NCBI GenBank assembly: GCA_020725105.1
Contig: DYFQ01000004.1
Span: 3,127 to 67,126, forward strand
Source of the DNA: Symbiobacterium thermophilum
GTDB lineage: Bacteria; Bacillota; Sulfobacillia; DYFQ01
Reading direction: 5' to 3'
DNA length: 64,000 nt
Shown: one piece after another, positions 6,984-56,907 of the stretch
Layout of the letters: every line of letters starts with the position of its first letter
How positions within the stretch are numbered: the stretch's first letter is position 1
Notes under the pieces: model-generated
Told to the model about the DNA's origin: nothing
The model's input: the letters and a program-made list of their open reading frames with translations, nothing else
The model's database searches: none
Position numbers and translations under genes: made by a program

Positions 6984-7145
6984 GGCCATCCCCCCGGCGC
7001 TAGGCTTCCCGCTCCCCTGGTGGCCCATGCCGCGGGTGCTTCCGGTATCACGGTTCGGGTGTCACGCCCCGGGCGGGTCCGCCTTCGGGTCGGGCCTGTC
7101 CGACCACCCCGGCCACAAGGTGGCCGCCCGCCAGGCCGGCGGACC

Positions 7146-13949: not shown

Positions 13950-14861
13950 TCAGTGACGCAGTACCTCGAGCTCCGCTGCCTCCAGGATGTCAGGCACCGC
14001 CTTCTCGTTGCCAACGGCCATGATGTGGACACCGTGGCATAGACGCTCCTCCCGGATGGCCCTCACGAACCGGGCGGCGATCTCTATGCCCTTGTCGCGC
14101 CCCTTCCCTTTCCCCGCCGAGGTCAACTCCTCGATGATGGCCCCGGGAACGGTGATCCCGGGGACGTTGTCGTTCATGAACCTGGCCATCCTGACCGAGG
14201 TGAGGACGATGATGCCGGCCAGGACGTACACATCGAACTGCGAGGCATACTGCATGAACCGGCGAAGGCTGGCCAGGTCGAAGATCCCCTGGGTCTGAAA
14301 GAACCGGGCCCCTGCGGCCACCTTCTTCTCGAACTTGATGAGCTGGGGCTCAATGAAGTCCGCCTCGGGGTGCACGGTCGCTCCGGCAAAGAACCGCGGG
14401 GCGCCCCGCAACGGGTTTCCGGAGAGATCCTGGCCGGACTCCAAGGTCCCCACCAGCCGCAGGAGCTGGACCGAGTCAAGGTCAAATACCGGCTTGGCCT
14501 CCTTGTGGTCTCCCACGTCCACCGAGTCGCCGGTCAGGCAGAGAACGTTGGTGATCCCCCGGGAATAGGCCAGGAGGAGGTCTGCCTGCAGGGCCAGGCG
14601 GTTGCGGTCCCGGCAGGTCACCTGCAGGATGGGTTCACCCCCGCGCTCCTTCACCAGGAGGCAGCCTCCCAGCGAGGGGAAACGCATCACCGAGCTCTGG
14701 TTGTCGGTGACGTTGATCGCGTCCACTCTGGTCTTGAGCAGGTCGATGAGGTGAACCAGCTCCGAGGCGTCCGCGCCCTTGGGCGGGCCGACCTCCGCGG
14801 TCACCACGAACTCGCCGGAGTTCAGTTTCTCCTCAAGCAGGCTGTGGGCCATCTGTCTCAC
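13950..14861 (-). CDS. metF: Methylenetetrahydrofolate reductase, catalytic subunit
   Basis: Full-length MTHFR TIM barrel (FVVTAEVGPPKGAD, QVTCRDRNRLALQADLL, YVLAGIIVLTS). Confidence 0.9.
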   Translation of the reverse strand: MRQMAHSLLEEKLNSGEFVVTAEVGPPKGADASELVHLIDLLKTRVDAINVTDNQSSVMRFPSLGGCLLVKERGGEPILQVTCRDRNRLALQADLLLAYSRGITNVLCLTGDSVDVGDHKEAKPVFDLDSVQLLRLVGTLESGQDLSGNPLRGAPRFFAGATVHPEADFIEPQLIKFEKKVAAGARFFQTQGIFDLASLRRFMQYASQFDVYVLAGIIVLTSVRMARFMNDNVPGITVPGAIIEELTSAGKGKGRDKGIEIAARFVRAIREERLCHGVHIMAVGNEKAVPDILEAAELEVLRH

Positions 14862-15525
14862 CCGGGCCGCCGGCCCTGCTGGTGATCCTCCGCGGACGGG
14901 GAATCGTCCGGAAGTTCCTGGGCGGATAGTACCGGCGCATCTTCTCCAGCTGGTTCAGGGTTTCCAGCCGGCGGTAGATCAGCACCCAGCCGCAGTCCAT
15001 TTCCGGGCTGGCCTCGCACTTGCCGTTCTTGGTACCGGCGCACGGACCGTTGAGCATCCCCTTGGTGCAGCGGGTGATCGGACAGATGCCACCGGTATCG
15101 GCCAGCCGGCAGTCGCCGCAGGCGGCGCACCGCTCGTCCCAGACCCCCCACTCGTCCGCCATGCCCACGAAGGAGGTATTGACTCCGGGCAGCACCGGCA
15201 GGTCGGGGAAATGCTCGGCTATGGCCTGGACTCCCACGCCACAGCCAAGGGACAGCACGGCGTCCACCTCCGCGACCCTGTCCTTGAGCAGGTCCAAGAA
15301 CTCGAGGTCGCACTGCCGCTTCAGGGTGTGCTCGAGGAAGATCCGCGGCTCTCCCCCAGCCCGCGCCCGCGCCACCCTGAGGGCATGGTGCAGATAGGAG
15401 ACCTCGCGCTCGCCCCCGGCACCGCACACGGTCATGCAGGTGCCGCAGCCCACGATGAGGACCCTGGAGTAGGGGGCGAGCATCCTTGCCATCTCGTCCA
15501 GGGGCTTTTGCTCCGCGATGATCAA
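14833..15525 (-). CDS. metV: Methylene-THF reductase small subunit (MTHFR_C, Cys-rich)
   Basis: Cys motifs CGTCMTVCG and CAACGDC...CPITRCTKGMLNGPCAGTKNGKCE are characteristic of MetV in acetogens. Its ATG overlaps the stop of the upstream oxidoreductase (ATGA). Confidence 0.8.
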   Translation of the reverse strand: MIIAEQKPLDEMARMLAPYSRVLIVGCGTCMTVCGAGGEREVSYLHHALRVARARAGGEPRIFLEHTLKRQCDLEFLDLLKDRVAEVDAVLSLGCGVGVQAIAEHFPDLPVLPGVNTSFVGMADEWGVWDERCAACGDCRLADTGGICPITRCTKGMLNGPCAGTKNGKCEASPEMDCGWVLIYRRLETLNQLEKMRRYYPPRNFRTIPRPRRITSRAGGPGETDGPQPA

Positions 15526-17657: not shown

Positions 17658-19312
17658 CTCCGGTCGTCTCCACCTTCGCGTCCCGTCCCGCCCGGCAGCG
17701 GTACTGTCACAGTGATCCGGGTTCCGCGCCCTGGTTCCGACTCGACCTGACAAGTTCCCCCGACCAGCTTGGCCCGTTCCTTCATGGTGAAAAGCCCTGC
17801 GCCCCGGCCGCCTGGCTCCACCCGCGTCAGCCGGCCAACCTCAAACCCCCGGCCGTCGTCTTCCACCCGGAGCACGCACTCGTTCTCGTCGCACTCCAGC
17901 CGAATGGAGGCATGCCTGGCGCCGGAGTGCTCCAGGATGTTGCCGATCAGCCCCTGCGCCACGCGGAAAAAGGTCATCTCCACCTCGGAGGGGAGGCGCT
18001 TGTCCATGCCCTTGAACTCCGTGGTTACGGCAATCCCCCGGGACTGCAGCATGTCCTTGGCGTAGCGCTGGATGGCGGCCGGCAGCCCGAGCTCATCCAG
18101 CAGGGTCGGCCGGAGCGCCTTCATCAGCTTGACGATCTCATTTCCCATGTGCACCGCCTGGGAGTAGGTCTTGTCCAGCATCTCGACCAGCTCGGGGTCG
18201 TTCACGCCCGTCAGCCCGACCATCTCGATGATCGCCTTGAGGTTCAGGGTGAGGCTCGTCAGGGCCTGACTGGTCCCGTCGTGGAGCTCCCTGGCGATGC
18301 GCTTTCGCTCCTCCTCCTGGGCGCTCAGGGCGCGCTGCAACAGGGCCTGGTAGCGTTGCCGCGCTTCCGCCAGCCGCGCGTAGAGCCTGGCCTGCTCGAC
18401 GGCGGCCCCCAGGTAGTCGCCGATCGACTTGAGCAAGGAGACGTCGTCGGGACTGAAGCGACCGACCACAAGGCTGGCCACGTTCATCACGCCCACCACT
18501 TCGCCCCGGCTCCTCAGCGGTATGCTGGCGAAACCCTTGAGCCCCTCGGCGCTGACCAGGTCGGGCCGGACCGTTCGAGGATCGGTGGAAAGATCCTCAA
18601 GCAGCATGGCCTCACCGGTCGCCGCCACCCGGCCCGCTATTCCCTCTCCCAGGGGTATCCGCATCTCCCGTACGTACTTGGGCGACAGGCCGCGGTGCAC
18701 GCGGTAGTGGAGGGTGTCCGTCTCCCGATCCACGAGCAGGATGCCCCCGCTCGAGCCGTTCACCAGCTCCAGGACGTTGTCCAGGGCGATGGTCAGGATG
18801 GAATCCAGGTCGTGAATGCCGCTCACCGCGCTCGAGACGTGATTGAGGGCGAGCAGCCTATGGTGCTGGCGAAGAATCTGGGTCTCCAGCTGGCGCTCGG
18901 CCGTAACGTCTCGTCTGAGCTCGAGGACGGCCCTCACCTTGCCCTGGCGGTCGCGGACCGGATAGGCACTGATCTTGAGGTATGTCTCTGCCCACGGGAT
19001 GCGGGCCGGATGGATGACGGTGGTCATGCGCCCGGACCGGAGCACGCTGCGCAGGGGACAATCCCAGAGGGGGGCCCCGCACGGTCGGTCACGATCATAG
19101 AAGACCTGGTAGCAAAGCTTCCCGACCGGTGATTCAACGCCCCTTCGCAGCCTGCTGCTGGCAGCCCGGTTGGCAAAGCGGATCCGGAACTCGCCGTCGA
19201 TGACCAGGAGGTCATCTTCCATGCTGTCCGCGATGTCCTGGAGCGTGATGTCGAAACCCGCCTGGCCGGAGGACTCCTGGATGACTATGTCCCGCGTGCC
19301 CACGTCTACCAC
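17654..19312 (-). CDS. Sensor histidine kinase, PAS-GAF-HisKA_3-HATPase
   Basis: Cys-containing PAS (CYQVFYDRDRPCGAPLWDCPL), a GAF domain, an H-box ELHDGTSQ (HisKA_3 / NarX-DegS type) and an ATPase G-box (GRGAGLFTMKERAKLVGG). Start is GTG at 19312 or 19303. Confidence 0.8.
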   Translation of the reverse strand: MVDVGTRDIVIQESSGQAGFDITLQDIADSMEDDLLVIDGEFRIRFANRAASSRLRRGVESPVGKLCYQVFYDRDRPCGAPLWDCPLRSVLRSGRMTTVIHPARIPWAETYLKISAYPVRDRQGKVRAVLELRRDVTAERQLETQILRQHHRLLALNHVSSAVSGIHDLDSILTIALDNVLELVNGSSGGILLVDRETDTLHYRVHRGLSPKYVREMRIPLGEGIAGRVAATGEAMLLEDLSTDPRTVRPDLVSAEGLKGFASIPLRSRGEVVGVMNVASLVVGRFSPDDVSLLKSIGDYLGAAVEQARLYARLAEARQRYQALLQRALSAQEEERKRIARELHDGTSQALTSLTLNLKAIIEMVGLTGVNDPELVEMLDKTYSQAVHMGNEIVKLMKALRPTLLDELGLPAAIQRYAKDMLQSRGIAVTTEFKGMDKRLPSEVEMTFFRVAQGLIGNILEHSGARHASIRLECDENECVLRVEDDGRGFEVGRLTRVEPGGRGAGLFTMKERAKLVGGTCQVESEPGRGTRITVTVPLPGGTGREGGDDRR

Positions 19313-19625: not shown

Positions 19626-20273
19626 ATGCCAATGATTCCCCAGGGCACCCGGGGAGAGATTCTTCAGTTGCTGAAACGCCACCGGGGGCTGACCATCGCC
19701 CAGCTGGCCAGGGAATTGGGGATCAGTCCCATGGCCGTCCGGCAGCACCTGATGCTGCTGGAGGGCGAGGGGCTGGTGGAAGGCGAGAAAATCCGGGGCC
19801 GCGTCGGCCGGCCGGGCCTCGCCTACCGGCTCACCCGCGACGGCGACGAGATCTTTCCCCGGCGCTACGACGTGCTGGCCGAAACCTTGCTGGACGCCGT
19901 GGCCGAACTGCACGGGCCCGAGACGGTAGACGCCCTGTTCCGGAAGCGGATGGAACGTCAGCTGGCCCGCTACTCCGAGCGCCTGGGCCACCTCGACCTG
20001 CCAGAACGGGTGCGGGAACTGGCCCGCATTCAGGCGGACGGCGGCTACATGGCGGAACCCTGGCGATCAAATGGCAATGCCCGGGGAGAGCATGGCTTTG
20101 TCCAGTACAACTGCCCCATCGCCCTGATCGCCAGGCGGTACCCCGTGGCCTGCCACTACGAGCTTGAACTGTACTGCCGGCTGCTGGGCGCGCCAGTGGA
20201 GCGGGTCGAGTGCATCGCCCAGGGCGGCACCTGCTGCCGCTACCGGATCGGGAACGGGCTGCCCGTCTCGTAA
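19626..20273 (+). CDS. ArsR-like winged-helix transcriptional regulator with C-terminal cysteine-rich domain
   Basis: N-terminal wHTH (EILQLLKRHRGLTIAQLARELGISPMAVRQHLMLLEGEGLV). The C-terminus carries CPIALIARRYPVACHYELELYCRLL...CIAQGGTCCRYRI. It is a paralogue of the CDS at 43031-43774. Confidence 0.7.
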   Translation: MPMIPQGTRGEILQLLKRHRGLTIAQLARELGISPMAVRQHLMLLEGEGLVEGEKIRGRVGRPGLAYRLTRDGDEIFPRRYDVLAETLLDAVAELHGPETVDALFRKRMERQLARYSERLGHLDLPERVRELARIQADGGYMAEPWRSNGNARGEHGFVQYNCPIALIARRYPVACHYELELYCRLLGAPVERVECIAQGGTCCRYRIGNGLPVS

Positions 20274-29328: not shown

Positions 29329-30222
29329 CTAGTTCAAGAGGTCACGCAGGTTTTCCCTGAGCGGGTGCTCGCGAAGCCGGGCCAGGGCCCGGGTCTCGAT
29401 CTGCTTGGTCCGCTGCTTGGAAATACCCAGCCGGCGGCTGATCTCCCGGAAGGTGCACGGTTCTTCCCCGCCAAGGCCCAGCCGGAGGGTGATCACTTCC
29501 CGCTCCCGCTCGGTCAGGCCGGCCAGCATGGCCTCGACGGACTCCCGGGCCAGCCGGCCGCAGGCCAGGTCAAACGGCCCATCGTCGTCCGAAGCGATCA
29601 GGTCCGACACGTGGCCGTCCCCGCTCTCCAGGGGGTAGTCCAGCGAGAGCACGTTGCGGGACCGCTCGTACAGCCGCCGCTTCTCCTCGGCTTCGGGGCT
29701 CAGGTTCTGCCGGGACCCGTCGTCGGCCCCCGTGGCATCCCAGGCGCCGTCCAGGTCCAGCGAGGCCTTGATGTGGTAGTAGGAACTGACGGGGAGGTGG
29801 ATCAGCCCGGACTGCTCGACGACGGCCCGGCCGATGGCCTGCTGGATCCACCACCAGGCGTAGGTGGAGAACCGGAAGCCTTGCCGCCAGTCGTACCGTT
29901 CCACCGCTTTCAGGAGACCCACGTTGCCTTCCTGGATCAGGTCGGCCAGGGGGACGCCGCGGCCCTTGAAGCGGTAGGCCACCTTGACCACCAGCCGCAG
30001 GTTGGCTTCGATCAGCCGCCGGCGGGCTTCGGGGTCCCCCGCCTCGACGCCCTGGGCCAGACGGACTTCCTCGTCAGGCGTCAGTAACGGGACGCGGCCG
30101 ATCTCCTGCAGGTACGGGGTAAGGGCTTCCGGACCCGGCTGCGGTCCGGCTTCCCGGGAGCTGGCCGTTTCGGCGGCGGTAGCGGGTGGTACCCCGCCGG
30201 TGGCCTCGGCGCTGCGGGACAC
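29329..30222 (-). CDS. Sigma-70 family sigma factor, RpoD-like (group 1/2-type region 2.4)
   Basis: Region 2 (LIQEGNVGLLKAVERYD...FRFSTYAWWWIQQAIGRAV) and region 4 (TEREREVITLRLGLGGEEPCTFREISRRLGISKQRTKQIETRALARLR). GTG start at 30222 with GAGGGAGG RBS and a 10-nt spacer. The tracked ORF start (TTG 30270) lies inside the promoter. Confidence 0.8.
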   Translation of the reverse strand: MSRSAEATGGVPPATAAETASSREAGPQPGPEALTPYLQEIGRVPLLTPDEEVRLAQGVEAGDPEARRRLIEANLRLVVKVAYRFKGRGVPLADLIQEGNVGLLKAVERYDWRQGFRFSTYAWWWIQQAIGRAVVEQSGLIHLPVSSYYHIKASLDLDGAWDATGADDGSRQNLSPEAEEKRRLYERSRNVLSLDYPLESGDGHVSDLIASDDDGPFDLACGRLARESVEAMLAGLTEREREVITLRLGLGGEEPCTFREISRRLGISKQRTKQIETRALARLREHPLRENLRDLLN

Positions 30223-30268
30223 GGTCTGCCAACCTCCCTCAGGTACGGCAGGTTGAAGGCGCATTCCC

Positions 30269-30298
30269 AATATATTCGAGATGTTAGCACTATGTCAA
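30269..30298 (-). promoter_or_regulatory. sigmaA-type promoter (TTGACA-17-ATATAT/TATATT) driving the RpoD-like sigma factor gene
   Basis: Minus-strand TTGACA at 30298-30293, a 17-18 nt spacer and a -10 near 30275-30269, in a local AT-rich patch. The predicted TSS is ~40 nt upstream of the GTG at 30222. Confidence 0.45.
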
Positions 30299-30440
30299 TA
30301 GTATTAACTGCGCAAAGCCCTTCCCGCCAGTGCCGTGCCGTCAGGAGGGGAATCGGCTGCCGCGGCCGCGGGGCAGACTCCACTTGGAGCCGCGCGCACG
30401 ACAAGCCACGGCAAGCCACACGAAAGGGGCGAACAGACCG

Positions 30441-30674
30441 GTGCCCGAGGTCAAGTGCGAAGTCGCCAGTTGTTACTACTGGGCGCAGGGGAACCACTGC
30501 GCCGCCGAGTTCATCGAGGTGGCCAACACCCGGACCCACCGTGGGGGCATGGAGGTGGGACGCCTGGGCAACCAGGCCTACGCGACCACGTCGCAGGAGA
30601 CCTGCTGCGCCACCTTCACGCCCAAAGAGCACGGGCCCAAGGAGAACGTTCGCCGCCAGGACGCGCACCGCTAG
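30441..30674 (+). CDS. DUF1540-domain small cysteine-rich protein (spore-associated family)
   Basis: MPEVKCEVASCYYWAQGNHCAAEFIEV...ETCCATFTPK matches the duplicated DUF1540 Cys motif. GTG start with GAAAGGGG RBS. Confidence 0.7.
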   Translation: MPEVKCEVASCYYWAQGNHCAAEFIEVANTRTHRGGMEVGRLGNQAYATTSQETCCATFTPKEHGPKENVRRQDAHR

Positions 30675-30804: not shown

Positions 30805-31263
30805 CTAGCTACGCCACTCGCGTTCCTCGCGGCCGCCCGGGGCGGCAAAGGTGGGCCCACCATACGTCGGGTAAGGCTCGGGCGCGCCCACGTGGCGCCC
30901 CTGGTCACGACCGTACTGGGGCCCGACCCCCGGCATGGCGCCGGGGATCATGCCTGCCGGCGCCTGGGCGTAGGGCTCGGCCCGGACGGTGCCCCGGTAA
31001 TCGTGAACGAACTTGGACACCTTGTGCTGGTCGGCGGCGGACACCTCGTACCAGCCCTTGTGGTGCAGGTACTCGAAGAGTTCGTAGTGCCGCTCCAGGT
31101 GGTCGTTCATGAGCGCCATGAAGCTGTTCCGGACTGGCCGGTTGGCCGCCTCGACGGTGCCCGTGTGATAGAAGGACGACAGGAACTTGCACGCGTCCAG
31201 GCACGCGAAGGCGATGGTCCGGTCGTCCAGCCGGTGGGCATGGGGTTGCGGGTGAACGCTCAC
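30805..31263 (-). CDS. Spore coat protein F-domain (CotF-like) protein
   Basis: Coat_F-like helical region (LDDRTIAFACLDACKFLSSFYHTGTVEAANRPVRNSFMALMNDHLERHYELFEYLHHKGWY). GTG start with GGAGAAAGGAGG RBS. Confidence 0.65.
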   Translation of the reverse strand: MSVHPQPHAHRLDDRTIAFACLDACKFLSSFYHTGTVEAANRPVRNSFMALMNDHLERHYELFEYLHHKGWYEVSAADQHKVSKFVHDYRGTVRAEPYAQAPAGMIPGAMPGVGPQYGRDQGRHVGAPEPYPTYGGPTFAAPGGREEREWRS

Positions 31264-31306
31264 GCGCTGCCTCCTTTCTCCGCTTCTGCGTCGCCATGGC
31301 ACAGGT

Positions 31307-31639
31307 CTAGGTACGGTAGCCTGGCCCGCCCAGTTCCGGCGGGTTGGGACGGTCGAAGGCCCCGGGGCCCCGCTGCTCCGGCCCGGCCACCGGCCGGTAC
31401 CCGGCCTGGACTCCCGCGCCGGCCGTGCCTGTCCAGCCCGGGTTCTGAGCCAGCTGGACGAGGGTCTGCAGCGCCCGCTCCGAACGGCGCCGGTGATCCT
31501 CGACCATGTGGCGCAATTGCGGGTCGTGGCACTGCTCGGCCAGGATGCCCAGCTTGGAGAGATGCACCGCTTCCGACCGGGCCAACTGCTCCATCATGTG
31601 CAGTTCGACCTGGCTCAGCCCGCCGATGTTGTGCGGCAT
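31307..31639 (-). CDS. Small CotF-domain-like spore coat protein
   Basis: LSQVELHMMEQLARSEAVHLSKLGILAEQCHDPQLRHMVEDHRRRSERALQTLVQLAQNPGW follows the same Coat_F pattern. The ATG is at residue 24 of the tracked ORF. The coordinate was derived arithmetically from the ORF table and is good to +/-1. Confidence 0.5.
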   Translation of the reverse strand: MPHNIGGLSQVELHMMEQLARSEAVHLSKLGILAEQCHDPQLRHMVEDHRRRSERALQTLVQLAQNPGWTGTAGAGVQAGYRPVAGPEQRGPGAFDRPNPPELGGPGYRT

Positions 31640-31803
31640 GAGATTGCCCCCCTTCCGCGTTCCCTGTGGTTGCCAAGGGATAGTCTGGGGCGGCGCTTGC
31701 GGCGGCATGAGCGGGAGTTTCTGGTAGGCAAGAGATAACGGGCCGGGCGGCGCTTGCCGCCCGGCCCGTGGTCTTCCGCGGCCCCGCGGCCCGGAGAAGG
31801 CAG

Positions 31804-38728: not shown

Positions 38729-39361
38729 TTGAGGATCAAGCAACTCGTGGTGGGACCCCTGGGGACCAACTGCTTCGTTGTCCTCGACGACCCCTCCGGG
38801 CGGGCCGCGGTGGTCGATCCCGGCGCCAACGCTCAGCGGGTCGTGGAAGCGCTTGAGGGCTACACCGCCAGCTACATATTGGTGACCCACGCCCACTTCG
38901 ACCACATCGGCGGTGTAGGAGACGTCAAGGCGGCCACGGGCGCCCCCGTCGCCATCCACCGACTGGAGGCCGAGTGGCTCTCCGACCCGGTGCGCAACGG
39001 TTCCGGGCTGTGGCCCGACGTCTGCCCCGAGCCGGTGGTCGCACCGCCCCCCGACCGGACCCTCGAGGACGGTGACCGCCTGCCTTTCGGCGACCGGGAA
39101 ATCGTCACCCTGTTCACGCCCGGCCACAGCCCGGGCCACGTGGCCTATCTCCTGGGCAACGTGGTCTTTGCTGGCGACACGCTGTTTCAGGGGTCCATCG
39201 GACGCAGTGACATCCCTGGAGGCGACCACGGCGTCCTCTTGCGGTCCATCCGTGAGAAGCTCCTGGTGCTGGGGGACGACACCATCGTGGCTCCGGGCCA
39301 CGGCCCCGCCACCACCATTGGTCGGGAGAAGCTGGCCAACCCTTTCTTGCGGGACAGGTAG
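38729..39361 (+). CDS. MBL-fold metallo-hydrolase (glyoxalase II-like)
   Basis: HxHxDH motif (VTHAHFDHIGG) with downstream His/Asp ligands. TTG start. Confidence 0.8.
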   Translation: MRIKQLVVGPLGTNCFVVLDDPSGRAAVVDPGANAQRVVEALEGYTASYILVTHAHFDHIGGVGDVKAATGAPVAIHRLEAEWLSDPVRNGSGLWPDVCPEPVVAPPPDRTLEDGDRLPFGDREIVTLFTPGHSPGHVAYLLGNVVFAGDTLFQGSIGRSDIPGGDHGVLLRSIREKLLVLGDDTIVAPGHGPATTIGREKLANPFLRDR

Positions 39362-39374
39362 CGGGACTGCCGGG

Positions 39375-40154
39375 TCAGGCGCACCCTTCTTGCGGCCTGG
39401 CCTCCCAGGCCAGGCGGAGCCCTTCCACGGTCAGCCACTCGTCGACGGCCTGGATGGTCGCGCTGTGGGGCGCCACCAGCGAAGCCAGCCCGCCTGTCGC
39501 CACCACCCGCGCGTCGGCCCCGATCTCCGCCCGGATCCGCTGGACCATGACGTCGACCAGGCCCGCCGAACCGTAAATGAGCCCCGACAGCATGGCCTGG
39601 GCCGTGTCCTTCCCGATGACCGGGCCGGGGGAAGCCAGTTCGATGCGGGGGAGGCCGGCGGCTCGCTCGAACAGGGCGTCCGCCGAGATGCCGACGCCGG
39701 GCGCCACGGCACCGCCCCGGTAGACACCGTCACGGGTCACGACGTCCAGCGTGGTGGCGGTTCCGAAGTCCACCAGGATGAGGGGGGTCCCGTACCGGTG
39801 GATGCCGCCTATCGCGTTGACCACCCGGTCGGGACCGACCGCGGTCGGCGGGTGGTAGTCGATGACCAGCCCCAGGTTCCGGCCGGGGCTGGCGACGAAT
39901 GCCTCCTGGCCGAAGTAGGTGCGGGCCATCTCCGCCAGGGCCGGCGTCAAGGGCGGCACCACCGAGCAGACGGCCACCGCGTCGATGGACGACAGGTCCA
40001 CACCCCGCAGGCGGAGGAGGTTCTGGAACAGGACCCCGTAGTCATCGGCCGTCCTGGCGCGGTCCGTCCCCAGCCGCCACGACGTCACGCGCTCGGGGCC
40101 GCTGAACACGGCGGCCACCAGGTTGGTGTTGCCCAGGTCTACCGCCAGGAGCAT
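39375..40154 (-). CDS. coaX: Type III pantothenate kinase
   Basis: MLLAVDLGNTNL start and CoaX/Bvg accessory-factor family fold. Sits 4 nt downstream of coaBC. Confidence 0.85.
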   Translation of the reverse strand: MLLAVDLGNTNLVAAVFSGPERVTSWRLGTDRARTADDYGVLFQNLLRLRGVDLSSIDAVAVCSVVPPLTPALAEMARTYFGQEAFVASPGRNLGLVIDYHPPTAVGPDRVVNAIGGIHRYGTPLILVDFGTATTLDVVTRDGVYRGGAVAPGVGISADALFERAAGLPRIELASPGPVIGKDTAQAMLSGLIYGSAGLVDVMVQRIRAEIGADARVVATGGLASLVAPHSATIQAVDEWLTVEGLRLAWEARPQEGCA

Positions 40155-40158
40155 CCGG

Positions 40159-41370
40159 TCACGCCCCCCTCTTGCCCCGTTCCTGTAGCAGGCGCGCCAC
40201 GTGGTCCCAGACCGCGTGAGCCAGGTTGTCCTTGCTGGTCAGCGGCACTTCGGCCACGACGCCCGAGCCGTCAAGGATGACAGCGGCGTTGTTGTCCGCG
40301 CCAAAGCCGCGGTCGGGCTGGCCGACGTCGTTGGCCACCACCAGGTCGGTTCCCTTGGCCGCCAGCTCTCGCTGGCCCCGGGCCACCAGGTCCCCGATCT
40401 CCCCGGCAAACCCGACCACCACCCGGTCGCCCTTTACCCGCGCCACCTCGGCCAGGATGTCGGGGGTGAGTTCCAGTTCCAGCCCCAGGTCCAGCGACTC
40501 CTTGGCCAGCTTCCCGGTGACCTGTCGGCGTGGCCGGAAGTCGGTGACGGCGGCGGCCATCACCACGGCGTCGGCCTCCGCCAGCCGCTCCAGGACGGCC
40601 GACCGCATCTCGGCGGCGGTCGTCACGCGCGCCACCTCCACCCCACGCGGCTCCGGCAGGACGGAGGGGCCGGTGACCAGCGTCACCCGGGCCCCCCGGT
40701 CTCGAGCCGCCCGGGCCAGGGCAAAGCCCATCTTCCCGCTGGACGGGTTCGCGATGAACCTGACGGCGTCGATGGGCTCGCGGGTTGGTCCACCGGTCAC
40801 CAGCACCGTGCGGCCGCGAAGGTCCTTGGGCGCCAGCAGACCCCGGATGGCGTCCAGAATGGTCTCGGTGGACGGCAGGCGACCCTGGCCGATCCGGCCC
40901 GACGCCAGGCGGCCCTCGTCGGGCTCCAGGATGGTCACTCCCAGGGCCTGCAGGCGGGCCAGGTTGCCCTGGGTCACCGGGTTGGCGTACATGTCGGCGT
41001 CCATGGCCGGGGCCATCAGGCACGGCGCCCGGCAGGCGAGCAGCGTGGCCGTCACAAAGTCGTCGGCCAGACCGTTGGCCACCTTGGCCAGGCAGTTGGC
41101 GGTGGCGGGCGCCACCACGAAGGCGTCCGCGTGGTCGGCCAGCCAGATGTGGTCCACCGGCCCCAGGCGGGCGGGGGCGAAGAGGTCCCAGAAGGCCGGG
41201 CGACCGGAAACGGCCTCGAAGGTGAGCGGCGTGACGAAGCGGGTGGCTGCCGGCGTCATCAGGACGTACACCGCGGCACCGGCCTGGTGCAGCTTGGAGA
41301 CCACGTCCACCGCCTTGTAACAGGAGATTCCGCCGGTCACCCCGTAAAGGATGGTTTTGCCCTCGAACAT
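40159..41370 (-). CDS. coaBC: Bifunctional phosphopantothenoylcysteine decarboxylase / phosphopantothenate-cysteine ligase
   Basis: N-terminal flavoprotein domain (ILYGVTGGISCYKA) plus the C-terminal CoaB ligase domain. Confidence 0.9.
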   Translation of the reverse strand: MFEGKTILYGVTGGISCYKAVDVVSKLHQAGAAVYVLMTPAATRFVTPLTFEAVSGRPAFWDLFAPARLGPVDHIWLADHADAFVVAPATANCLAKVANGLADDFVTATLLACRAPCLMAPAMDADMYANPVTQGNLARLQALGVTILEPDEGRLASGRIGQGRLPSTETILDAIRGLLAPKDLRGRTVLVTGGPTREPIDAVRFIANPSSGKMGFALARAARDRGARVTLVTGPSVLPEPRGVEVARVTTAAEMRSAVLERLAEADAVVMAAAVTDFRPRRQVTGKLAKESLDLGLELELTPDILAEVARVKGDRVVVGFAGEIGDLVARGQRELAAKGTDLVVANDVGQPDRGFGADNNAAVILDGSGVVAEVPLTSKDNLAHAVWDHVARLLQERGKRGA

Positions 41371-41474
41371 GAGCTTCTCCTTTCAGTGCCCCGCCAGGCT
41401 CTTTCGGTCCGGGCGGGCGGCATCCTGCCCGCGCGGGGTCCGCGCCCGGGGATAGCCCCTGAGCGGCCCGTGGC

Positions 41475-42785
41475 CTACCTGACGAAGGCGCGGTACGCTT
41501 CCCAGCCCAGCCGGGCCAGGGAACCCCAGCCCCCGACCTCGCGGCGGACTTCCCCCACCAACCAGGCCTCCTTCTCCTTGATGCTCTTGCCGTCGACGGT
41601 GAACAACTCGGTCACCACGCGGTTCAAGAGCGCCGGATAGGTGGTGAACAGCTCCCGGTGGCGGTTGAGGAACTCGGGGACCCGCCGGTACTTCTTCAGG
41701 TCCTGGAGGATGAAGCTCTCCGCCAGCCGCTCGTGATAGCGGCGCAGGGCGCGGGAGGAGAAATCGCCCCGCTCCTTGGCCTCGACCACCGCCTGGCCGG
41801 CCAGTTCGCCGGATTTCATCGCCAGGTTTGACCCTTCCCGGTGGATGACGTTGACCAGGCCCGCCGTGTCTCCGACCATCAGGTACCCATCGCCGTACAC
41901 CCGGGGCAGCGACTCAAACCCGCCCTCGGGAATCAGGTGGGCCATGTACTCCTTGGGTTCGCCCCCCTGGACGAGCTTGCGGACGGCGGGGTGGGCCTTC
42001 ATGTGCTCCAGGATGTCGTAGGGCTTCAGCTGCAGCTTGACAAAGTCGGCCAGGATCGAGCCGATGCCCAGGGATATGGAGTCGCGGTTGGTGTAGATCC
42101 AGCCCATGCCGAAAGTGCCCCGGGTGGCGTCGCCCACCAGTTCGATGGTGGCGCCCTGGCCGTCTTCCAGGTTGAAGCGGTCCTCGATCTTCTCCCGGGG
42201 GAGGACGATGATCTCCTTCACCGCCAGGGCCACCTTCTCCGGGGGCCATTCGGGCCGCAGGCCGGCCTTGGGCGCCAGGATGGAGTTGACCCCGTCGGCC
42301 AGGATCACCACGTCGGCAAAGACATCGCCGTCGGGCCGGCCGGTCCTGACGCCGACCACCCGGTCGCCTTCCTTGAGCAGGTCCTCCACGACGGTCTCGG
42401 TGACGAGCAGCGCTCCCGCCGCCTCCGCCTGAGCGGCGAACCAGCGGTCGAAGCGCGAGCGGAGCACGGTGTAGGCCATGTGGGGCGGACCCTCGCCCCA
42501 GCGGGCGGACTGGTGGCCGACCCGGAGCGCGGAGCCGCTCTCGTCCAGGAGCCACATCTCCTGGCGGGTCACGGGGCGTTCCACCGGCACGTCCTTGGGC
42601 CAGGCGGGGAACAGGTCCGCAAGCTGGCGGGAATAGAGCACTCCGCCCATCACGTTCTTGGCGCCGGCGAAGTCGCCGCGCTCGATCACCAGGACCTTGA
42701 CCCCGGCCCGGGCCATGGTCAGGGCGGCGGCGGACCCCGCCGGCCCGGCTCCCACCACAATGGCGTCGTAGCGCTCCACAGCCAT
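41475..42785 (-). CDS. fixC: Electron-transfer flavoprotein:quinone oxidoreductase FixC-like FAD-dependent oxidoreductase
   Basis: YDAIVVGAGPAGSAAALTMARAGVKVLVIE plus FixC-type central and C-terminal regions. ATG at 42785 with AGGGGG RBS. No fixA, fixB or fixX is adjacent. Confidence 0.85.
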   Translation of the reverse strand: MAVERYDAIVVGAGPAGSAAALTMARAGVKVLVIERGDFAGAKNVMGGVLYSRQLADLFPAWPKDVPVERPVTRQEMWLLDESGSALRVGHQSARWGEGPPHMAYTVLRSRFDRWFAAQAEAAGALLVTETVVEDLLKEGDRVVGVRTGRPDGDVFADVVILADGVNSILAPKAGLRPEWPPEKVALAVKEIIVLPREKIEDRFNLEDGQGATIELVGDATRGTFGMGWIYTNRDSISLGIGSILADFVKLQLKPYDILEHMKAHPAVRKLVQGGEPKEYMAHLIPEGGFESLPRVYGDGYLMVGDTAGLVNVIHREGSNLAMKSGELAGQAVVEAKERGDFSSRALRRYHERLAESFILQDLKKYRRVPEFLNRHRELFTTYPALLNRVVTELFTVDGKSIKEKEAWLVGEVRREVGGWGSLARLGWEAYRAFVR

Positions 42786-42973
42786 TCTCAGGTACCCCCT
42801 CCGGGCTTCGGCCACCGGGACCCGCGACGTGGATTCGGTCACCGGGGGACAGTTCAGTCCCAGGACCTTGCCACCCATGGCGACCGGCCTGTGGTTGTGA
42901 ATTTCGTCACGTTCCTGTCACGTTCCAAGTATACCATCGGCCACGACCCGGGCGAAGCCCCGGCTCTCTCGCG

Positions 42974-43000
42974 TTTACGCTGCGACGACGCGTCATATAA
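42974..43000 (+). promoter_or_regulatory. Promoter candidate with consensus -10 TATAAT (42995-43000) for the second Cys-rich wHTH regulator
   Basis: Perfect TATAAT with a weak -35 (TTTACG). RBS GGAGGGA and TTG start follow ~30 nt downstream. Confidence 0.35.
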
Positions 43001-43030
43001 TGTGTGGGACGTGGGACGGAGGGACCGGGG

Positions 43031-43774
43031 TTGAAGGCGGAGACGCTGAAGGTCCTGAGCGCGCTCGGGGACCCGACGCGATATGCCATCTACCACTACC
43101 TCGTCGCCAGCGAAAGCCGGGGCGCGACCGCCCAGGAGGTTGGCGACGCCTTCTCCATCCATCCCAACGTTGCCCGGCTGCACCTGACCAAGCTCGAAGA
43201 GGCCGGCGTGGTCGAGTCGTACGTGCAGAAACCGCTGCCCGGCGGCGGCCGCCCGGCCCGGGCCTACGTGGTGGCCGACCGCCCGCCGGAACTCGAGTTT
43301 CCCGCCAGGGAGTGGCGGCTCCTTTCCGAGGTGGCCACTTCAGCCCTGGCCATGCTGATGCCCGACGCCGCCGAGAGCCTCTGTGCGGAAGGGCGCCGGC
43401 ATGGGCTGGCGCTGGGCGAAGCCAGTCTCCGCCGCTCTGAACCGGGACTGGTTCCGGAGACCGGCGGCTCGCCGGCCACCTCCCCGGGGCGCCTGGAAAA
43501 CCTGAGGCAACTGCTTTGCGACTGCCATCCGGGAGCCGAGGTGCGGTGGCAGGACGGGGGGTTTTCGGTGAGCCTGCCTCAGTGCCCGTTCCGGGAGGTG
43601 GCCGCCAGCCAGCCGCAAGTGGTCTGCCAGATGCACCTGGCCCTGCTCCAGGGAATGGTCGAGTCCCACCTCGGCCCGGTCGCCGCGAGCGCGCTGGCGC
43701 TCATGCCCGACGGGTGCGCCACCTGTGACTTTGCCTTCGCCCCGGCCGGCCACGACCGGCCGGCCGCCGGCTAG
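43031..43774 (+). CDS. ArsR-like winged-helix transcriptional regulator with C-terminal cysteine-rich domain (paralogue of 19626-20273)
   Basis: wHTH (LKVLSALGDPTRYAIYHYL...ATAQEVGDAFSIHPNVARLHLTKLEEAGVV). C-terminus carries CDCHPG...CPFREV...VCQMHLALLQG...CATCDF. TTG start with GGAGGGA RBS. Confidence 0.7.
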   Translation: MKAETLKVLSALGDPTRYAIYHYLVASESRGATAQEVGDAFSIHPNVARLHLTKLEEAGVVESYVQKPLPGGGRPARAYVVADRPPELEFPAREWRLLSEVATSALAMLMPDAAESLCAEGRRHGLALGEASLRRSEPGLVPETGGSPATSPGRLENLRQLLCDCHPGAEVRWQDGGFSVSLPQCPFREVAASQPQVVCQMHLALLQGMVESHLGPVAASALALMPDGCATCDFAFAPAGHDRPAAG

Positions 43775-44763
43775 CGCCGCAGCCACCGGAGGGCCTCGAC
43801 CGCCCTCGCCGCCAGCATCTCGGCGCCCGTCTCCCGGAAGCGCTCCCCCATCGCAGCGCCGGACTGGCCCGCCACGAGCCCGCAGAAAAGGACCGGCGTC
43901 CGGCTGGCTTCCGGGGTCTGCCGGTACCGCTGGGCGGCCCGGGCGTCGTCCAGGTTGTCGCCGAAGTACACGGCCACCGACGGCGACAGCACCCGGACCA
44001 GCGCCTGCAGGCCGCCGGGGTCGGGCTTGAGGTGGCCGGAGTCCGCGGTGATGACCGCCTCCGGAGGGACCAGGCCGCTCAGCCCGCACAGTTCCAGCGC
44101 GGGCAGGGCCTCGGACGCGGCCCGGCCGGTGTAGATGCCGAGCCTGCCCGGTGGGAGGTCCCGCGCCGTGACCAGCGCCCGCTCCCGGCGGTACAGCCCC
44201 GGCCCGCGGACGTGGCGGGGGACGATTCCGAAGAGGGCCGGCGCGTCGTCACGGGCATAGTACTCGCAGCACAGGGTCTCGATGAGGCCCGGATCCCAGG
44301 TCTCGAGCGCCCGGGCCATCACGGCCTCACCCACTCGCGCCTGCAGCACAGAACGGGCGGCGACGAGACCTCCGCCGGCCTGCGCCACCTCACGGCAGAA
44401 GGCCTGCAGGTCGGCGGGATCCCGGACCCGGTCCAGGTGCCGGCGGCCGAGGGCTTCTCCCAGGGCCAGAAAGTACAGGGTCGCCGCCCGGGCCAGGTCC
44501 CAGTCGCTGTTGAAGCCGCCCGCCTGCTTGAACCAGGCGGTGTCGCCGGGAACAAGAGGCGGTCCCTCGCCCGGCCAGCCCGAGATCCTGCCGAGATAGT
44601 GGGTCACCGTCCGGACGATGACCTCGGGATAGGAGGCCGAGGTGTCTACCAGCACCCCGTCGATGTCGAACAGGTAGGCGTCTGCACCGGCCAGCCGGGA
44701 AAGGGCGTCCGGCCGGACCCAGACGTCGCCGGCAACGCGCCGGTATCCGTCAGGCTGGACCAT
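43771..44763 (-). CDS. HAD-like hydrolase
   Basis: DIDGVLVDT motif I near the N-terminus and GDNLDD motif IV. Low-complexity, possibly partly mis-framed. Confidence 0.5.
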   Translation of the reverse strand: MVQPDGYRRVAGDVWVRPDALSRLAGADAYLFDIDGVLVDTSASYPEVIVRTVTHYLGRISGWPGEGPPLVPGDTAWFKQAGGFNSDWDLARAATLYFLALGEALGRRHLDRVRDPADLQAFCREVAQAGGGLVAARSVLQARVGEAVMARALETWDPGLIETLCCEYYARDDAPALFGIVPRHVRGPGLYRRERALVTARDLPPGRLGIYTGRAASEALPALELCGLSGLVPPEAVITADSGHLKPDPGGLQALVRVLSPSVAVYFGDNLDDARAAQRYRQTPEASRTPVLFCGLVAGQSGAAMGERFRETGAEMLAARAVEALRWLRR

Positions 44764-54987: not shown

Positions 54988-56172
54988 GTGACCGGAGCCG
55001 GAGGGTGGCTGGACCGGGCCATCGCTCACCTGGAGGCCCAGCTGGCCGAGACCATCGAGGATATCGTCAGCATCTGCGAGATCCCCGCGCCCACCTTCCG
55101 GGAGCGGCGGCGGGCCATGGAACTGGCCCGCCGGCTGAACGCCCTCGGGCTTTCAGACGTGCACCTGGACGGGGTCGGCAACGTCATCGGACGTTACCCG
55201 CTCCGGGCCTCCGGGTCGCGAAACGGAGCCCTGGTCGTGTCGGCTCACCTGGACACGGTGTTTCCCGACGAGACCCCCATCAAGGTCCGGCGGACCGGCG
55301 ACCGGCTGGAGGGACCGGGGGTCGGGGACAACTCCACCTCTCTCGCGGTGCTGGTCCGGGTGGTGGCGGCCCTCCTCGCGGCTGGCTGGGAATCCCCCGT
55401 GGACCTGGTGGTCCTGGCCAACGTGGGCGAGGAAGGCCTGGGGGACCTGAGGGGGATGAAGGGTTTCTTCGACGGCTACGCCGCCGAGAACAGGCTCAAC
55501 GTCCGCGGCTGCCTGGTGCTGGACGGGCCGCTGGGTAACCTCTCCAACCGGGGCATCGGCTCCCGCCGGCTGGACGTGACCTTCACGGGCCCGGGTGGGC
55601 ACAGCTGGAAGGACTTCGGCACCCCCAGCGCCATCCACGCGCTCGGCCGGGCCATCGCCGTCGTCGCCGACCTCACGGTGCCCCGACGACCCAAGACCAC
55701 CTACAACGTGGGGCTCGTCAGGGGCGGCACCTCGGTGAACACCATCGCAGCCGAAGCCGGAATGGTGGTCGACCTCAGGTCGGAGCAAGAGGAAGCCCTC
55801 GACCGGCTCGAGGCGCGGGTGAGGCGGGCGGTGAGCGCCGCCGCGGGAGAAGGGACCGGCGTGCGCATCGAGGTGGTGGGCGACCGGCCCATCGGGGCCA
55901 TCCCGGACCAGCACCCCCTGGTCCAGGCGGCCCGGGACGCCGCCCGGGGCCTGGGCCTGGCGCTTCGCTGCGGCTCCTCCAGCACCGACGCTAACGTCCC
56001 GCTCTCGAGAGGCATTCCCGCCTGCGCGCTCGGGGTGTACCGGGGCGGCGGCGCCCATACCCGCCAGGAGTACGTCCTCACCGGCTCGCTGCCGGACGGG
56101 ATGAAGCTGGCCCTGCTGACGTTGGTGGGTTGGGCGGCGTGGGCGGCCGCCGAAAGCGAGCGGTCCGGCTAG
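54988..56172 (+). CDS. M20-family metallopeptidase (peptidase T / ArgE / DapE-like)
   Basis: HLDTVFP metal-binding motif, dimerisation-domain pattern. GTG start with GGAGGGGG RBS. Confidence 0.7.
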   Translation: MTGAGGWLDRAIAHLEAQLAETIEDIVSICEIPAPTFRERRRAMELARRLNALGLSDVHLDGVGNVIGRYPLRASGSRNGALVVSAHLDTVFPDETPIKVRRTGDRLEGPGVGDNSTSLAVLVRVVAALLAAGWESPVDLVVLANVGEEGLGDLRGMKGFFDGYAAENRLNVRGCLVLDGPLGNLSNRGIGSRRLDVTFTGPGGHSWKDFGTPSAIHALGRAIAVVADLTVPRRPKTTYNVGLVRGGTSVNTIAAEAGMVVDLRSEQEEALDRLEARVRRAVSAAAGEGTGVRIEVVGDRPIGAIPDQHPLVQAARDAARGLGLALRCGSSSTDANVPLSRGIPACALGVYRGGGAHTRQEYVLTGSLPDGMKLALLTLVGWAAWAAAESERSG

Positions 56173-56627
56173 GAGCGCTGCCTGGCCGGGGCTTCCTTCT
56201 GGCAGGCCTTGCAGACCCCGAAGAACTTTACCTCGTGGTCGATCACCTGAAACTGGTTTGCCTCGCCGACCGCCTCTTCCAGCGAGCGCAGGAAGGCCTC
56301 GTCAAAGGCCTCAACCGCACCGCACCTGACGCAGATCAGGTGGTTCTGGTACTGGGAGCCGCCGTCGGCCAGCCCGTAGCGGGTCTTGCCGTCGCCGAAA
56401 GACACCCGCTGCAGCATCCCCAGGTCGGTCAGGAGGTCAAGGGTGCGGTAGATCGTTGCCAGGCCGATCTCAGGGTAGTCCTGTTTGATGAGGTTGTAGA
56501 CGTCCTCGGCTGAAAGCTGGCGGTCCTTGTTCAGCACGATCTCCTTGATGATGGCCCACCGCTGCCAGGTGACCCGGTACTCGCTTGAATTCAGCCGCTC
56601 GAGGATGGTGCGGATGTTATGGGGCAC
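56169..56627 (-). CDS. fur: Fur-family transcriptional regulator (Fur/PerR/Zur type)
   Basis: DNA-binding helix (HNIRTILERL...LSAEDVY...ATIYRTLDLL) and a structural-Zn CxxC pair (HLICVRCG...CKAC). GTG start with AGGAGGGGAG RBS. Confidence 0.8.
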   Translation of the reverse strand: MPHNIRTILERLNSSEYRVTWQRWAIIKEIVLNKDRQLSAEDVYNLIKQDYPEIGLATIYRTLDLLTDLGMLQRVSFGDGKTRYGLADGGSQYQNHLICVRCGAVEAFDEAFLRSLEEAVGEANQFQVIDHEVKFFGVCKACQKEAPARQRS

Positions 56628-56907
56628 GCCCGCTCTCCCCTCCTGTCCGCTGAACGGCGCCGGTGGCTTCAGCAACATCTTATCGAAAATGATCATCAGT
56701 GAGAATCCACGAGAACGGGCAGACTGTCCCCCCGGGGAGGCCCGGAGGGCAAGGAGATGGTGGCGTTGACCGGCGGCGCGGGCCCTGGCGGACCGGGTAC
56801 CGCCCCCGCGCCGGGCCCGGCCCACCCGCGCCCTGGCCGACGCCAGCCCGCGCCCCACGGACCCGGTGTATTGAACTCAACCGGCGAAACGCCAGCGGAA
56901 GCGGCCG

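Follow-up and report, generated by a model that had tools for sequence, protein, structure and literature searches.

The gene for a cysteine-rich winged helix-turn-helix (wHTH) regulator stands back to back with fixC in Symbiobacterium thermophilum, within the 64 kb window analysed here (the whole stretch of DNA, 64,000 nucleotides). The initial annotation read this pair as a dedicated redox-responsive switch for a FixC-dependent electron route. The locus thus raises the question of whether the regulator controls fixC at all, and of which partners a FixC without neighbouring electron transfer genes would have.

The regulator and fixC genes

The regulator (247 aa, positions 43031–43774, plus strand) combines an ArsR-type wHTH (about 43064–43219; HTH_20 match, E = 1.3e-13) with a V4R-fold sensor domain (about 43313–43750), and contains seven Cys residues. 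Its most likely start is the TTG codon at 43031, which is preceded by the Shine-Dalgarno (SD) sequence GGAGGG at 43018–43023, and the JGI gene call P0001 corresponds to the same protein. The GTG codon at 43004 given in the ORF list was rejected because it lies 3 nt past the -10 element, and also on the SD position and the N-termini of homologues. The promoter TTTACG-16-TATAAT (42974–43001, plus strand; TTTACG at 42974, TATAAT at 42996–43001) is the sole sigma-70-like site between 41300 and 44000, where 0.1 would be expected, and its TATAAT is kept in one close relative, L089. The divergent orientation from fixC and the TATAAT -10 element that had been noted were therefore borne out. The regulator had also been counted as the second Cys-rich wHTH protein, and the window's other one was found at 19632–20273 (plus strand). 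This SufR-like paralogue matched TIGR02702 (SufR_cyano) over the full length of the model at 138.7 bits, against a cut-off of 178.8, and homologues of it carry the name SufR in their source records. The neighbours of the regulator in the window are fixC and a HAD hydrolase gene.

fixC (41475–42785, minus strand) encodes a 436 aa FAD subunit of an ETF:quinone oxidoreductase of the EtfC/FixC type. It was called in the ORF list as 41475–42878 (minus strand). The ATG at 42785 is the most likely true start, because an SD sequence, GGAGGGGG, is present at 42795–42802 and both the homologues and T. maritima FixC (7KOE_C) align from residue 4–5; a longer protein from the ATG at 42878 was rejected on the SD position and the homologue N-termini. 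The protein is alike to EtfC of the bifurcating EtfABCX complex of T. maritima (PDB 7KOE) in both domains and over nearly its full length (residues 5–401, E = 1.7e-114), and it has 6363 homologues at E ≤ 1e-30. Pfam matches to DAO, FAD_binding_3 and ETFQO_UQ-bd mark the N-terminal FAD-binding fold, and ETF-QO_FixC_C (PF26311) is on record for an identical protein. The matches to the NCBIfam models PRK10015 (E = 1.6e-108; 363 bits against 466) and PRK10157 (FixC; E = 6.9e-99; 331 bits against 610) fall below the curated cut-offs, which belong to E. coli-type FixC/YdiS subfamilies. By homology, the protein is a genuine EtfC/FixC orthologue.

The immediate 3' neighbour of fixC is not fixX but coaBC (40159–41370, minus strand; Pfam DFP and Flavoprotein), across a gap of 104 nt in which no terminator-like site was found. 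coaBC is probably co-transcribed with fixC, and the gene order is the same in L089. coaX, for a type III pantothenate kinase (39375–40154, minus strand; Pfam Pan_kinase), begins 4 nt after coaBC and is the last gene of the putative operon. We infer from this arrangement that fixC probably heads a fixC-coaBC-coaX operon. Two back-to-back sigma-A-type promoters in 42786–43030 would serve the two divergent genes, one the regulator and the other fixC.

The regulator family and its sensor domain

A one-genome-per-species collection has homologues of the regulator at 576 places, mainly in Bacillota, Actinomycetota and related MAGs. Among 116 homologues, C185, C199, H202 and C232 are invariant. The C-terminal half has a V4R fold, and the AF2 model of the protein has a pLDDT of 87. 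Pfam MetOD1 was matched in 23 of 31 family members and V4R in 11 of the 31, the V4R match being sub-threshold. The regulator also scored below the cut-off of the ArsR/SmtB model NF033788 HTH_metalloreg (28.8 bits against 55), with the wHTH alone in common. Profile-profile comparison with SufR-like proteins gave homology over the full length (hhalign probability 99.8%, E = 1e-27), in which C185, C199 and C232 align with C167, C180 and C208.

SufR (cyanobacterial sll0088; Rv1460 of M. tuberculosis), a repressor of suf genes, has the same layout of an ArsR/DeoR-type wHTH and a Cys-bearing C-terminal domain; it binds a [4Fe-4S] cluster, regulates its own expression and is encoded divergently from the genes it controls (PMC7058544). 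One member of the regulator family is placed as SufR is from its target: in the Clostridia MAG L072 it is divergent from sufC-sufBD-sufS, and the family palindrome described below lies on the intergenic promoter. The window regulator nonetheless differs from SufR. It scored 19.4 bits on TIGR02702 (cut-off 178.8), compared with 138.7 for the protein at 19632–20273, it has the invariant H202 where SufR-like proteins have Glu, and it has no suf genes beside it. Its family motif, CACyr-N6-yrGTG, is also unlike the SufR box, CAAC-N6-GTTG.

An HTH plus V4R architecture with three conserved Cys residues is also that of MsvR, a V4R redox regulator described as unique to methanogens. MsvR represses both its own gene and the redox-related operon that lies divergent beside it, and its redox state determines whether it binds DNA (PMC3729527). 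In contrast to the methanogen-specific MsvR, the present family is bacterial and its DNA boxes are unlike those of MsvR; the Pfam V4R match is sub-threshold, and the likeness drawn here is one of architecture and fold.

The genes that surround the regulator vary widely by lineage, and include an ArsC/Spx-like gene, DUF166, Methyltransf_28 and suf; in Thermoleophilia and Actinomycetota, NifU/IscS and ferredoxin genes are nearby. Judged by these comparisons, the regulators form a sister family of SufR that is widespread and uncharacterised, with an ArsR-type wHTH joined to a V4R-fold sensor. The full-length SufR-like homology, the three aligned invariant Cys residues and the MsvR-like V4R fold make it very probable that the regulator senses a cofactor or redox state, probably as an Fe-S or redox-sensing DNA-binding protein. 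It may act as a dimeric repressor in which a Cys-ligated cofactor sets the affinity for DNA, with three invariant Cys and one His of the V4R-fold domain at the positions of the SufR-like conserved Cys. The cofactor would most likely be an Fe-S cluster, and otherwise the protein may work as a thiol or metal switch.

The family palindrome and the fixC leader

The regulator family travels with a palindrome, CACyr-TGTCAA-yrGTG, which overlaps a promoter -35; the six central nucleotides are mostly TGTCAA, so that the other strand reads as the -35 box TTGACA. The 1.77 Mb of loci retrieved were scanned with a position weight matrix (PWM) of this motif. At a threshold of 15 bits it matched 68 times, in each case no more than about 2.5 kb from a regulator homologue; the matches come from Brevibacillus, Bacillaceae, Thermoleophilia/Actinomycetota and Clostridia. 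At this threshold, the 82 fixC loci had none. In a stricter pattern scan, a -10-like hexamer followed TTGACA by 16–18 nt in 60 of 60 palindromes, that of the window included, compared with 11% of controls. About a quarter of the family loci had no palindrome within 6–7 kb. Where the motif occurs in Bacillaceae, Rfam gave sub-threshold matches only, and a known sRNA there was rejected.

The window contains one PWM match, the near-perfect copy TAGCACTATGTCAATAGTATTA (30285–30306, plus strand), with a score of 25.5 bits; the highest score among 200 shuffles was 16.4. A promoter on the minus strand (30269–30298), TTGACA (30298–30293)-18-TATATT (30274–30269), has its -35 overlapped by this copy, and its predicted target is an RpoD/RpoS-like sigma-70 family gene (29329–30270, minus strand; Pfam Sigma70 r1.2, r2 and r4; likely start GTG 30222). 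The matches of this gene to the NCBIfam RpoS/RpoD-like models are below cut-off. On the other flank of the palindrome is a DUF1540 gene (30441–30674, plus strand; Pfam DUF1540, E = 3.7e-14). The site is 12.7 kb from the regulator gene, while in most other genomes having the palindrome it is within 2.5 kb. The link between regulator and palindrome here therefore rests on motif similarity and on the recognition-helix segment FSIHPNVARxHLxKL, which is invariant in the family and present in the window protein. Bound to CACyr-N6-yrGTG, the regulator would occlude the promoter, the site lying over the -35, and the predicted target in this genome would be the sigma promoter beside the DUF1540 gene and not fixC.

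The palindrome is absent from the region between the divergent genes (42786–43030), where the best PWM score was -5.2 bits and no CACYR-N6-YRGTG was found even with one mismatch. The regulator was never beside fixC in 80 family loci, and its arrangement with fixC-coaBC-coaX is kept in L089 only. Together with the palindrome 12.7 kb away at the sigma-factor promoter, this indicates that the regulator and fixC probably do not form a dedicated switch. The original proposal is thus supported in part: its redox-responsive side is very probable, on the SufR-like homology and the V4R fold, and the dedicated pairing with fixC finds no support. That the regulator controls another target is a prediction, made from the palindrome on the promoter at 30285–30306. 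The SufR box was also sought; it is not in the intergenic region, and its single match lies inside an MBL-fold hydrolase gene (38729–39361).

Control of fixC is more likely to run through a conserved element of its own leader. The putative fixC promoter is an extended -10, TGGTATACT (42928–42936, minus strand), read from the sequence, and its TGnTATACT is kept in L089. Just downstream of this -10, a placement suited to a repressor, the 5' leader carries the box TTGTGAATTTCGTCACG (TGTGA-N6-TCACG; 42895–42911, plus strand), which is present in a single copy in the window and occurs in L089 as TTGTGAAAATCGTCACG. The Rex operator consensus is TTGTGAA-N4-TTCACAA, and that of CRP/FNR-type operators is TGTGA-N6-TCACA. 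The leader box, taken as 42895–42912, fits 11 of the 14 specified Rex positions (three mismatches; 23 of 100 shuffles gave such a match per window) and 9 of the 10 CRP/FNR-type positions. It resembles both, and may be a site for a Rex- or CRP/FNR-like protein, but its right half-site is degenerate and the window yielded no gene identified as rex, crp or fnr. The leader also contains a direct repeat of GTCACGTTCC, two copies spaced 11 nt (42906–42926, plus strand). TCGTCACG is likewise found upstream of the regulator genes in L089 and in a Limnochordales MAG, L063, where it overlaps the TTGACA -35 of the regulator's own gene. TCGTCACG(T/A)(T/A) is common to the upstream regions of three Limnochordia-like regulator genes, the window copy being in the fixC leader, and could be a lineage-specific operator. 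A riboswitch or structured fixC leader was rejected: Rfam gave no match in the window, and the predicted folds had z = -0.22 for the leader and z = +0.73 for the fixC-coaBC gap.

Competing readings and implications

Overall, we consider the best explanation to be that the SufR-sister regulator acts at 30285–30306 and that fixC is controlled separately through its leader box, a reading to which we give an even chance. The regulator might instead bind within 42786–43030 and directly switch fixC, and with it coaBC-coaX, according to redox state. The divergent layout, in which a few tens of bp separate the promoters and which is kept in L089, would suit such control, as would the conserved leader elements TTGTGAA-N4-GTCACG and the two GTCACGTTCC copies, and the TCGTCACG over the -35 of the L063 regulator gene. 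We regard direct control as unlikely, however, since the region has no palindrome by either the PWM or the relaxed pattern while a near-perfect one exists elsewhere in the window, none of the 80 family loci shows the pairing, and L063 has TCGTCACG but no fixC beside its regulator. The invariance of the recognition helix further argues against a changed DNA specificity of the window protein. The sensor itself can also be read differently. The V4R sensor domains of DmpR and PoxR carry a Cys/His/Glu zinc site, and the invariant Cys and His residues of the regulator could form a structural zinc site of this kind in a protein that, like DmpR and PoxR, senses a small organic ligand. The wide differences between lineages in neighbouring genes are compatible with this reading, which we nevertheless find rather unlikely: the homology to SufR-like proteins is full length with three Cys residues aligned, and SufR binds a [4Fe-4S] cluster (PMC7058544); L072 has its family member on a suf operon; NifU/IscS and ferredoxin genes accompany the Thermoleophilia and Actinomycetota regulators; and the V4R cysteines of MsvR are redox-active (PMC3729527).

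The status of FixC is a separate matter. It had been described as standing without fixA, fixB or fixX, and this held across the 64 kb window, in which tblastn with EtfA, EtfB and FixX queries from related loci found generic ferredoxin-motif matches only. Hidden fixX, etfA or etfB genes in the window were ruled out, as these matches lie in HdrA-like and PorD genes. This fixC, unlike that of EtfABCX, is placed before coaBC-coaX without fixX or etfAB; in this lineage the EtfC/FixC orthologue has parted from its usual neighbours, fixX and fixAB. An ordinary FixABCX-type complex, with FixAB and FixX encoded elsewhere and the position beside coaBC and the regulator incidental, is in our view a little short of evenly probable. 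The etfAB genes adjoin in 32 of 48 homologue loci and fixCX occurs without adjacent etfAB in the other 16, which indicates that split operons are common. The protein is also highly similar to the structurally characterised EtfC, among the 85 columns with 95% or higher conservation in its homologues it retains 78, and our view takes in 64 kb of the genome. On the other hand, fixX adjoins fixC in 65 of the 73 nearest homologue loci and is missing both here and in L089. The FixC of L089 is 76% identical to that of the window, and in 7 of these 85 columns each of the two departs from the conserved residue; other homologues do so in at most 4 (median 0). Six substitutions are common to both (P40A, A66V, A110S, F229W, A307T and K402I). 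The next-nearest homologues, at 59–60% identity, occur with fixX or fixABCX, and a metagenome scan with FixC found none above 59% identity, which leaves L089 as the sole informative relative for footprinting. Furthermore, the two [4Fe-4S] clusters of EtfX act as a wire that connects EtfAB to the FAD of EtfC (PMC10734219), so that a separately encoded fixX would be unusual.

A more far-reaching model joins both halves of the locus, and we think it improbable as a whole. The regulator would stand for a sister family of SufR/MsvR-type sensors in bacteria, large and as yet unstudied, in which a Cys/His-bound cofactor gates a palindrome on a consensus -35, here that of an alternative RpoD/RpoS-like sigma gene, such that Fe-S or redox status reprogrammes transcription by way of a sigma factor. 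Separately, FixC without FixX would work as a flavoprotein:quinone reductase that needs no ETF and is expressed together with CoA biosynthesis.

The locus illustrates that neighbourhood is a weak guide, in that adjacency alone would assign the regulator to fixC and comparison across loci points to another target. Should the lack of FixX be confirmed for the whole genome, this FixC would put to the test the current EtfABCX model, where EtfX connects EtfAB with the FixC flavin. The comparisons also define an uncharacterised and widespread SufR-sister family with a concrete candidate DNA site, which is directly testable. If true, the sigma-factor link would be a new route by which global transcription in spore-forming Bacillota responds to Fe-S or redox status.

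The fixC-regulator intergenic region

The start of fixC (41475-42785, minus strand) is most likely ATG 42785, since its SD sequence, GGAGGGGG, lies at a fitting position (42795-42802) and alignments of FixC with its homologues and with the solved T. maritima protein begin at residue 4-5. For the Cys-rich wHTH regulator (43031-43774, plus strand) TTG 43031 is the likeliest start. The SD sequence GGAGGG precedes it at 43018-43023, and the resulting 247-aa product is identical to JGI gene call P0001. GTG 43004, the start in the ORF listing, was rejected because it lies only 3 nt past the -10. A promoter scan of 41300-44000 returned TTTACG-16-TATAAT (42974-43001) as the sole sigma-70-like promoter, against 0.1 expected. 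On the opposite strand an extended -10, TGGTATACT (42936-42928), points at fixC and is its putative promoter. Both -10 elements are kept in L089, a Logan contig and the single close relative, whose FixC is 76% identical. The initial annotation had described a divergent pair with a consensus TATAAT -10, and the starts, the promoter scan and the conservation in L089 confirm that description.

On the strand of fixC follow coaBC (40159-41370) and coaX (39375-40154), and then an MBL-fold hydrolase gene on the plus strand (38729-39361). Neither a terminator-like site nor unusual structure was found in the fixC-coaBC gap, so a fixC-coaBC-coaX operon is plausible. The regulator gene is followed by a HAD hydrolase gene (43771-44763, minus strand), beyond which lie GNAT, IscA-like, DUF309-NUDIX and lipA genes and a four-subunit 2-oxoacid:ferredoxin oxidoreductase.

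The putative fixC -10 is closely followed by TTGTGAATTTCGTCACG (42895-42911), which has a counterpart, TTGTGAAAATCGTCACG, in the L089 fixC leader. This box matches the Rex consensus (TTGTGAA-N4-TTCACAA) at 11/14 positions and the CRP/FNR-type TGTGA-N6-TCACA at 9/10. A single match of such quality arose in 23 of 100 shuffles, and the case for the box is therefore carried by its conservation in L089. The window also holds a direct repeat, two copies of GTCACGTTCC 11 nt apart. In the L089 leader the stretch from the -10 to the TTGTGAA box contains a hairpin resembling a terminator, GCCGCGCTGGCGGC plus a T7 tract (~345-375); it could represent lineage-specific attenuation, and the window's fixC leader has no counterpart. 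Many Bacillaceae have boxes of the TGTGAA type, such as TTTGTGAACATTTTCTAAAC, ahead of the regulator promoter (for example at ~6880-6900 of locus L013). They are similar to the left half of the TTGTGAA box in the window, and a Rex/FNR-like input to the regulator family may be widespread.

FixC and its usual partners

FixC matches T. maritima EtfC/FixC (PDB 7KOE chain C) over residues 5-401 with an E value of 1.7e-114. It comprises a FAD-binding N-terminus and an ETF-QO/FixC C-terminal domain, scores under the curated NCBIfam cut-offs for E. coli-type models, and is a member of the known EtfC/FixC flavoprotein kind. Searches of the 64-kb window with the EtfA, EtfB and FixX of related loci found no homologue of any of the three; the statement that fixC stands without fixA, fixB and fixX thus holds at the level of this locus and window. 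Comparison was made with 82 nearest-homologue loci (43-59% identical, plus L089 at 76%). Of the 73 loci whose downstream sequence is long enough, 65 have fixX adjoining fixC, and of the 48 whose upstream sequence is long enough, 32 have etfAB adjoining it. The next-nearest homologues (59-60% identity) are accompanied by fixX or by a complete fixABCX. Among the 82 loci the order regulator/fixC-coaBC-coaX/MBL recurs only in L089, which likewise lacks fixX. The orphan state of this FixC at the locus level is real, and unusual within its family.

Electron flow in EtfABCX runs from EtfAB through two [4Fe-4S] clusters in EtfX to the FAD of EtfC that reduces quinone (PMC10734219), so a FixC without any FixX would need another donor. 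Of 85 columns with at least 95% conservation among 118 homologues, each orphan FixC (window and L089) deviates in 7; for the other homologues the median is 0 and the maximum 4. Six substitutions are common to both orphans (P40A, A66V, A110S, F229W, A307T and K402I). These shared deviations hint at altered constraint, in a test that carries ascertainment bias.

The window encodes a distant relative of FixC, a second FAD-dependent oxidoreductase (5739-7061) that appears to be of the geranylgeranyl-reductase type and has only FAD_binding_3 and Lycopene_cycl matches in Pfam. Clustered at 13950-17840 are a MetF-like gene, a MetV-like gene and a large HdrA/MvhD-like fusion with Pyr_redox_2, Fer4 and FlpD domains, a group resembling the acetogen MTHFR module.

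Kinship of the regulator

Pfam finds only HTH_20 in the regulator. A database search gave 116 homologues, ~25-37% identical, mostly from Brevibacillus and Bacillaceae and also from Thermoleophilia and other MAGs. Invariant across them are the recognition-helix region FSIHPNVARxHLxKL and residues C185, C199, H202 and C232. Sub-threshold Pfam matches to MetOD1 (23/31) and V4R (11/31) occur among family members, and a PDB profile search gave weak matches to Bet3/TRAPPC3.

The other Cys-rich wHTH protein of the window (19632-20273) scores 138.7 bits against TIGR02702 over the full model length (cut-off 178.8), and some of its homologues carry the name SufR at source. By these matches it is SufR-like, more so than the regulator. 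In profile-profile comparison the two families are homologous over their whole length (probability 99.8%, E 1e-27) and their three invariant Cys align. The regulator itself nevertheless falls outside the SufR equivalog, its 19.4 bits ruling out membership. SufR, a [4Fe-4S] repressor, is encoded divergently from its target (PMC7058544), and in MsvR, an HTH-V4R regulator, the V4R cysteines render DNA binding redox-sensitive (PMC3729527). Judged by this profile homology and by the properties of SufR and MsvR, the regulator is a paralogue of a known cofactor/redox sensor class, and likely functions as such a sensor. Both components of the locus, the SufR/MsvR-type sensor and the EtfC/FixC flavoprotein, belong to known kinds. 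The initial interpretation is supported in part: a redox or cofactor sensor is likely, whereas its dedication to FixC found no support in the comparisons that follow.

The SufR-like gene is flanked by a PAS/GAF histidine kinase gene and two M16 peptidase genes, not by suf genes. The longest ORF of a Fur-family gene (56169-56876) adds an N-terminal extension of ~95 aa, and the real start is therefore probably further in.

Neighbours and candidate operator of the regulator family

In a one-genome-per-species scan, relatives of the regulator are encoded at 576 places, and we surveyed the neighbourhoods of the best 80. A DUF2626/YqgY gene lies downstream in 60 of these 80 and an ArsC/Spx-like gene is divergent in 36; an MBL-fold yqgX-like neighbour is also conserved, homologues of the window's MBL protein being detected in 64. 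In Thermoleophilia DUF166 is divergent, and NifU/IscS and ferredoxin genes occur close by. A single Clostridia MAG, L072, has sufC-sufBD-sufS divergent and a Fur-family gene downstream.

A motif, wAmCACyrTGTCAAyrGTGwww, is common to regulator-linked regions of distant lineages. A PWM built from ten sequences and scanned over all fetched loci (1.77 Mb) gave 68 matches of at least 15 bits, all within ~2.5 kb of a regulator homologue and some outside the training set, L083 and Bacillaceae sites among them; the 82 fixC loci had no match. Read on the opposite strand, its TGTCAA centre is TTGACA. A stricter pattern scan gave 60 instances, with the window's own copy counted in, and in all 60 a -10-like hexamer follows 16-18 nt past TTGACA on the same strand, compared with 11% of control positions. 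The hexamer is TATAAT in 27 and matches at least 5/6 positions in 46. The palindrome accordingly reads as a candidate operator overlaying a -35 box. A different centre occurs in two Actinomycetota loci, which retain the arms CACTA and TAGT(A/G). Roughly one in four family loci lacks the motif within 6-7 kb, so the site need not adjoin the regulator gene.

In two Bacillaceae loci (L013 9266-9287, L081 8319-8340) the motif is flanked by the yqgX-like MBL gene on one side and a Methyltransf_28 gene on the other, where TTGACA with TATTGT (TATCTT in L081) would fire a ~90-nt transcript containing CCCCUCCC and ending at the bidirectional MBL terminator. This predicted transcript, for which Rfam gave sub-threshold matches only, may be an anti-SD small RNA.

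The initial annotation had read the regulator as a dedicated switch for FixC. What speaks for this is mainly an element, TCGTCACG(T/A)(T/A), common to the upstream regions of three Limnochordia-like regulator genes (window 42903-42912; L063 519-528; L089 reverse strand, ~390-400), for which we keep the dedicated switch as an unlikely alternative. In L063, a Limnochordales MAG, the element abuts the own TTGACA of a regulator gene that has no fixC beside it. None of the best 80 family loci has fixC within 7 kb, and only the window's own lineage shows the pairing. Nor does 42786-43030 carry the family palindrome: its best PWM score is -5.2 bits, 70th in the window, and CACYR-N6-YRGTG has no match there with one mismatch allowed. 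The comparative evidence does not support a dedicated FixC switch, and predicts a different target.

The window contains one strong PWM match, TAGCACTATGTCAATAGTATTA (30285-30306), at 25.5 bits; in 200 shuffle controls the mean maximum was 7.0 and the largest 16.4. This copy lies within an AT-rich island of the ~70% G+C sequence and overlaps the -35 of a near-consensus sigma-A promoter, TTGACA (30298-30293), 18 nt, TATATT (30274-30269). The promoter reads into an RpoD/RpoS-like sigma gene (29329-30270, minus strand; likely start GTG 30222). On the other side of the palindrome lie a DUF1540 gene (30441-30674, plus strand) and, beyond it, a Coat_F (CotF-like) gene (30805-31302, minus strand) and a second ORF (31307-31708, minus strand), CotF-like by eye and without a Pfam match. 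These neighbours suggest a sporulation-related cluster. Since the recognition helix is invariant, the predicted binding site of the regulator is 30285-30306 rather than the fixC region. The main product is a testable operator hypothesis for a widespread, unstudied regulator family.
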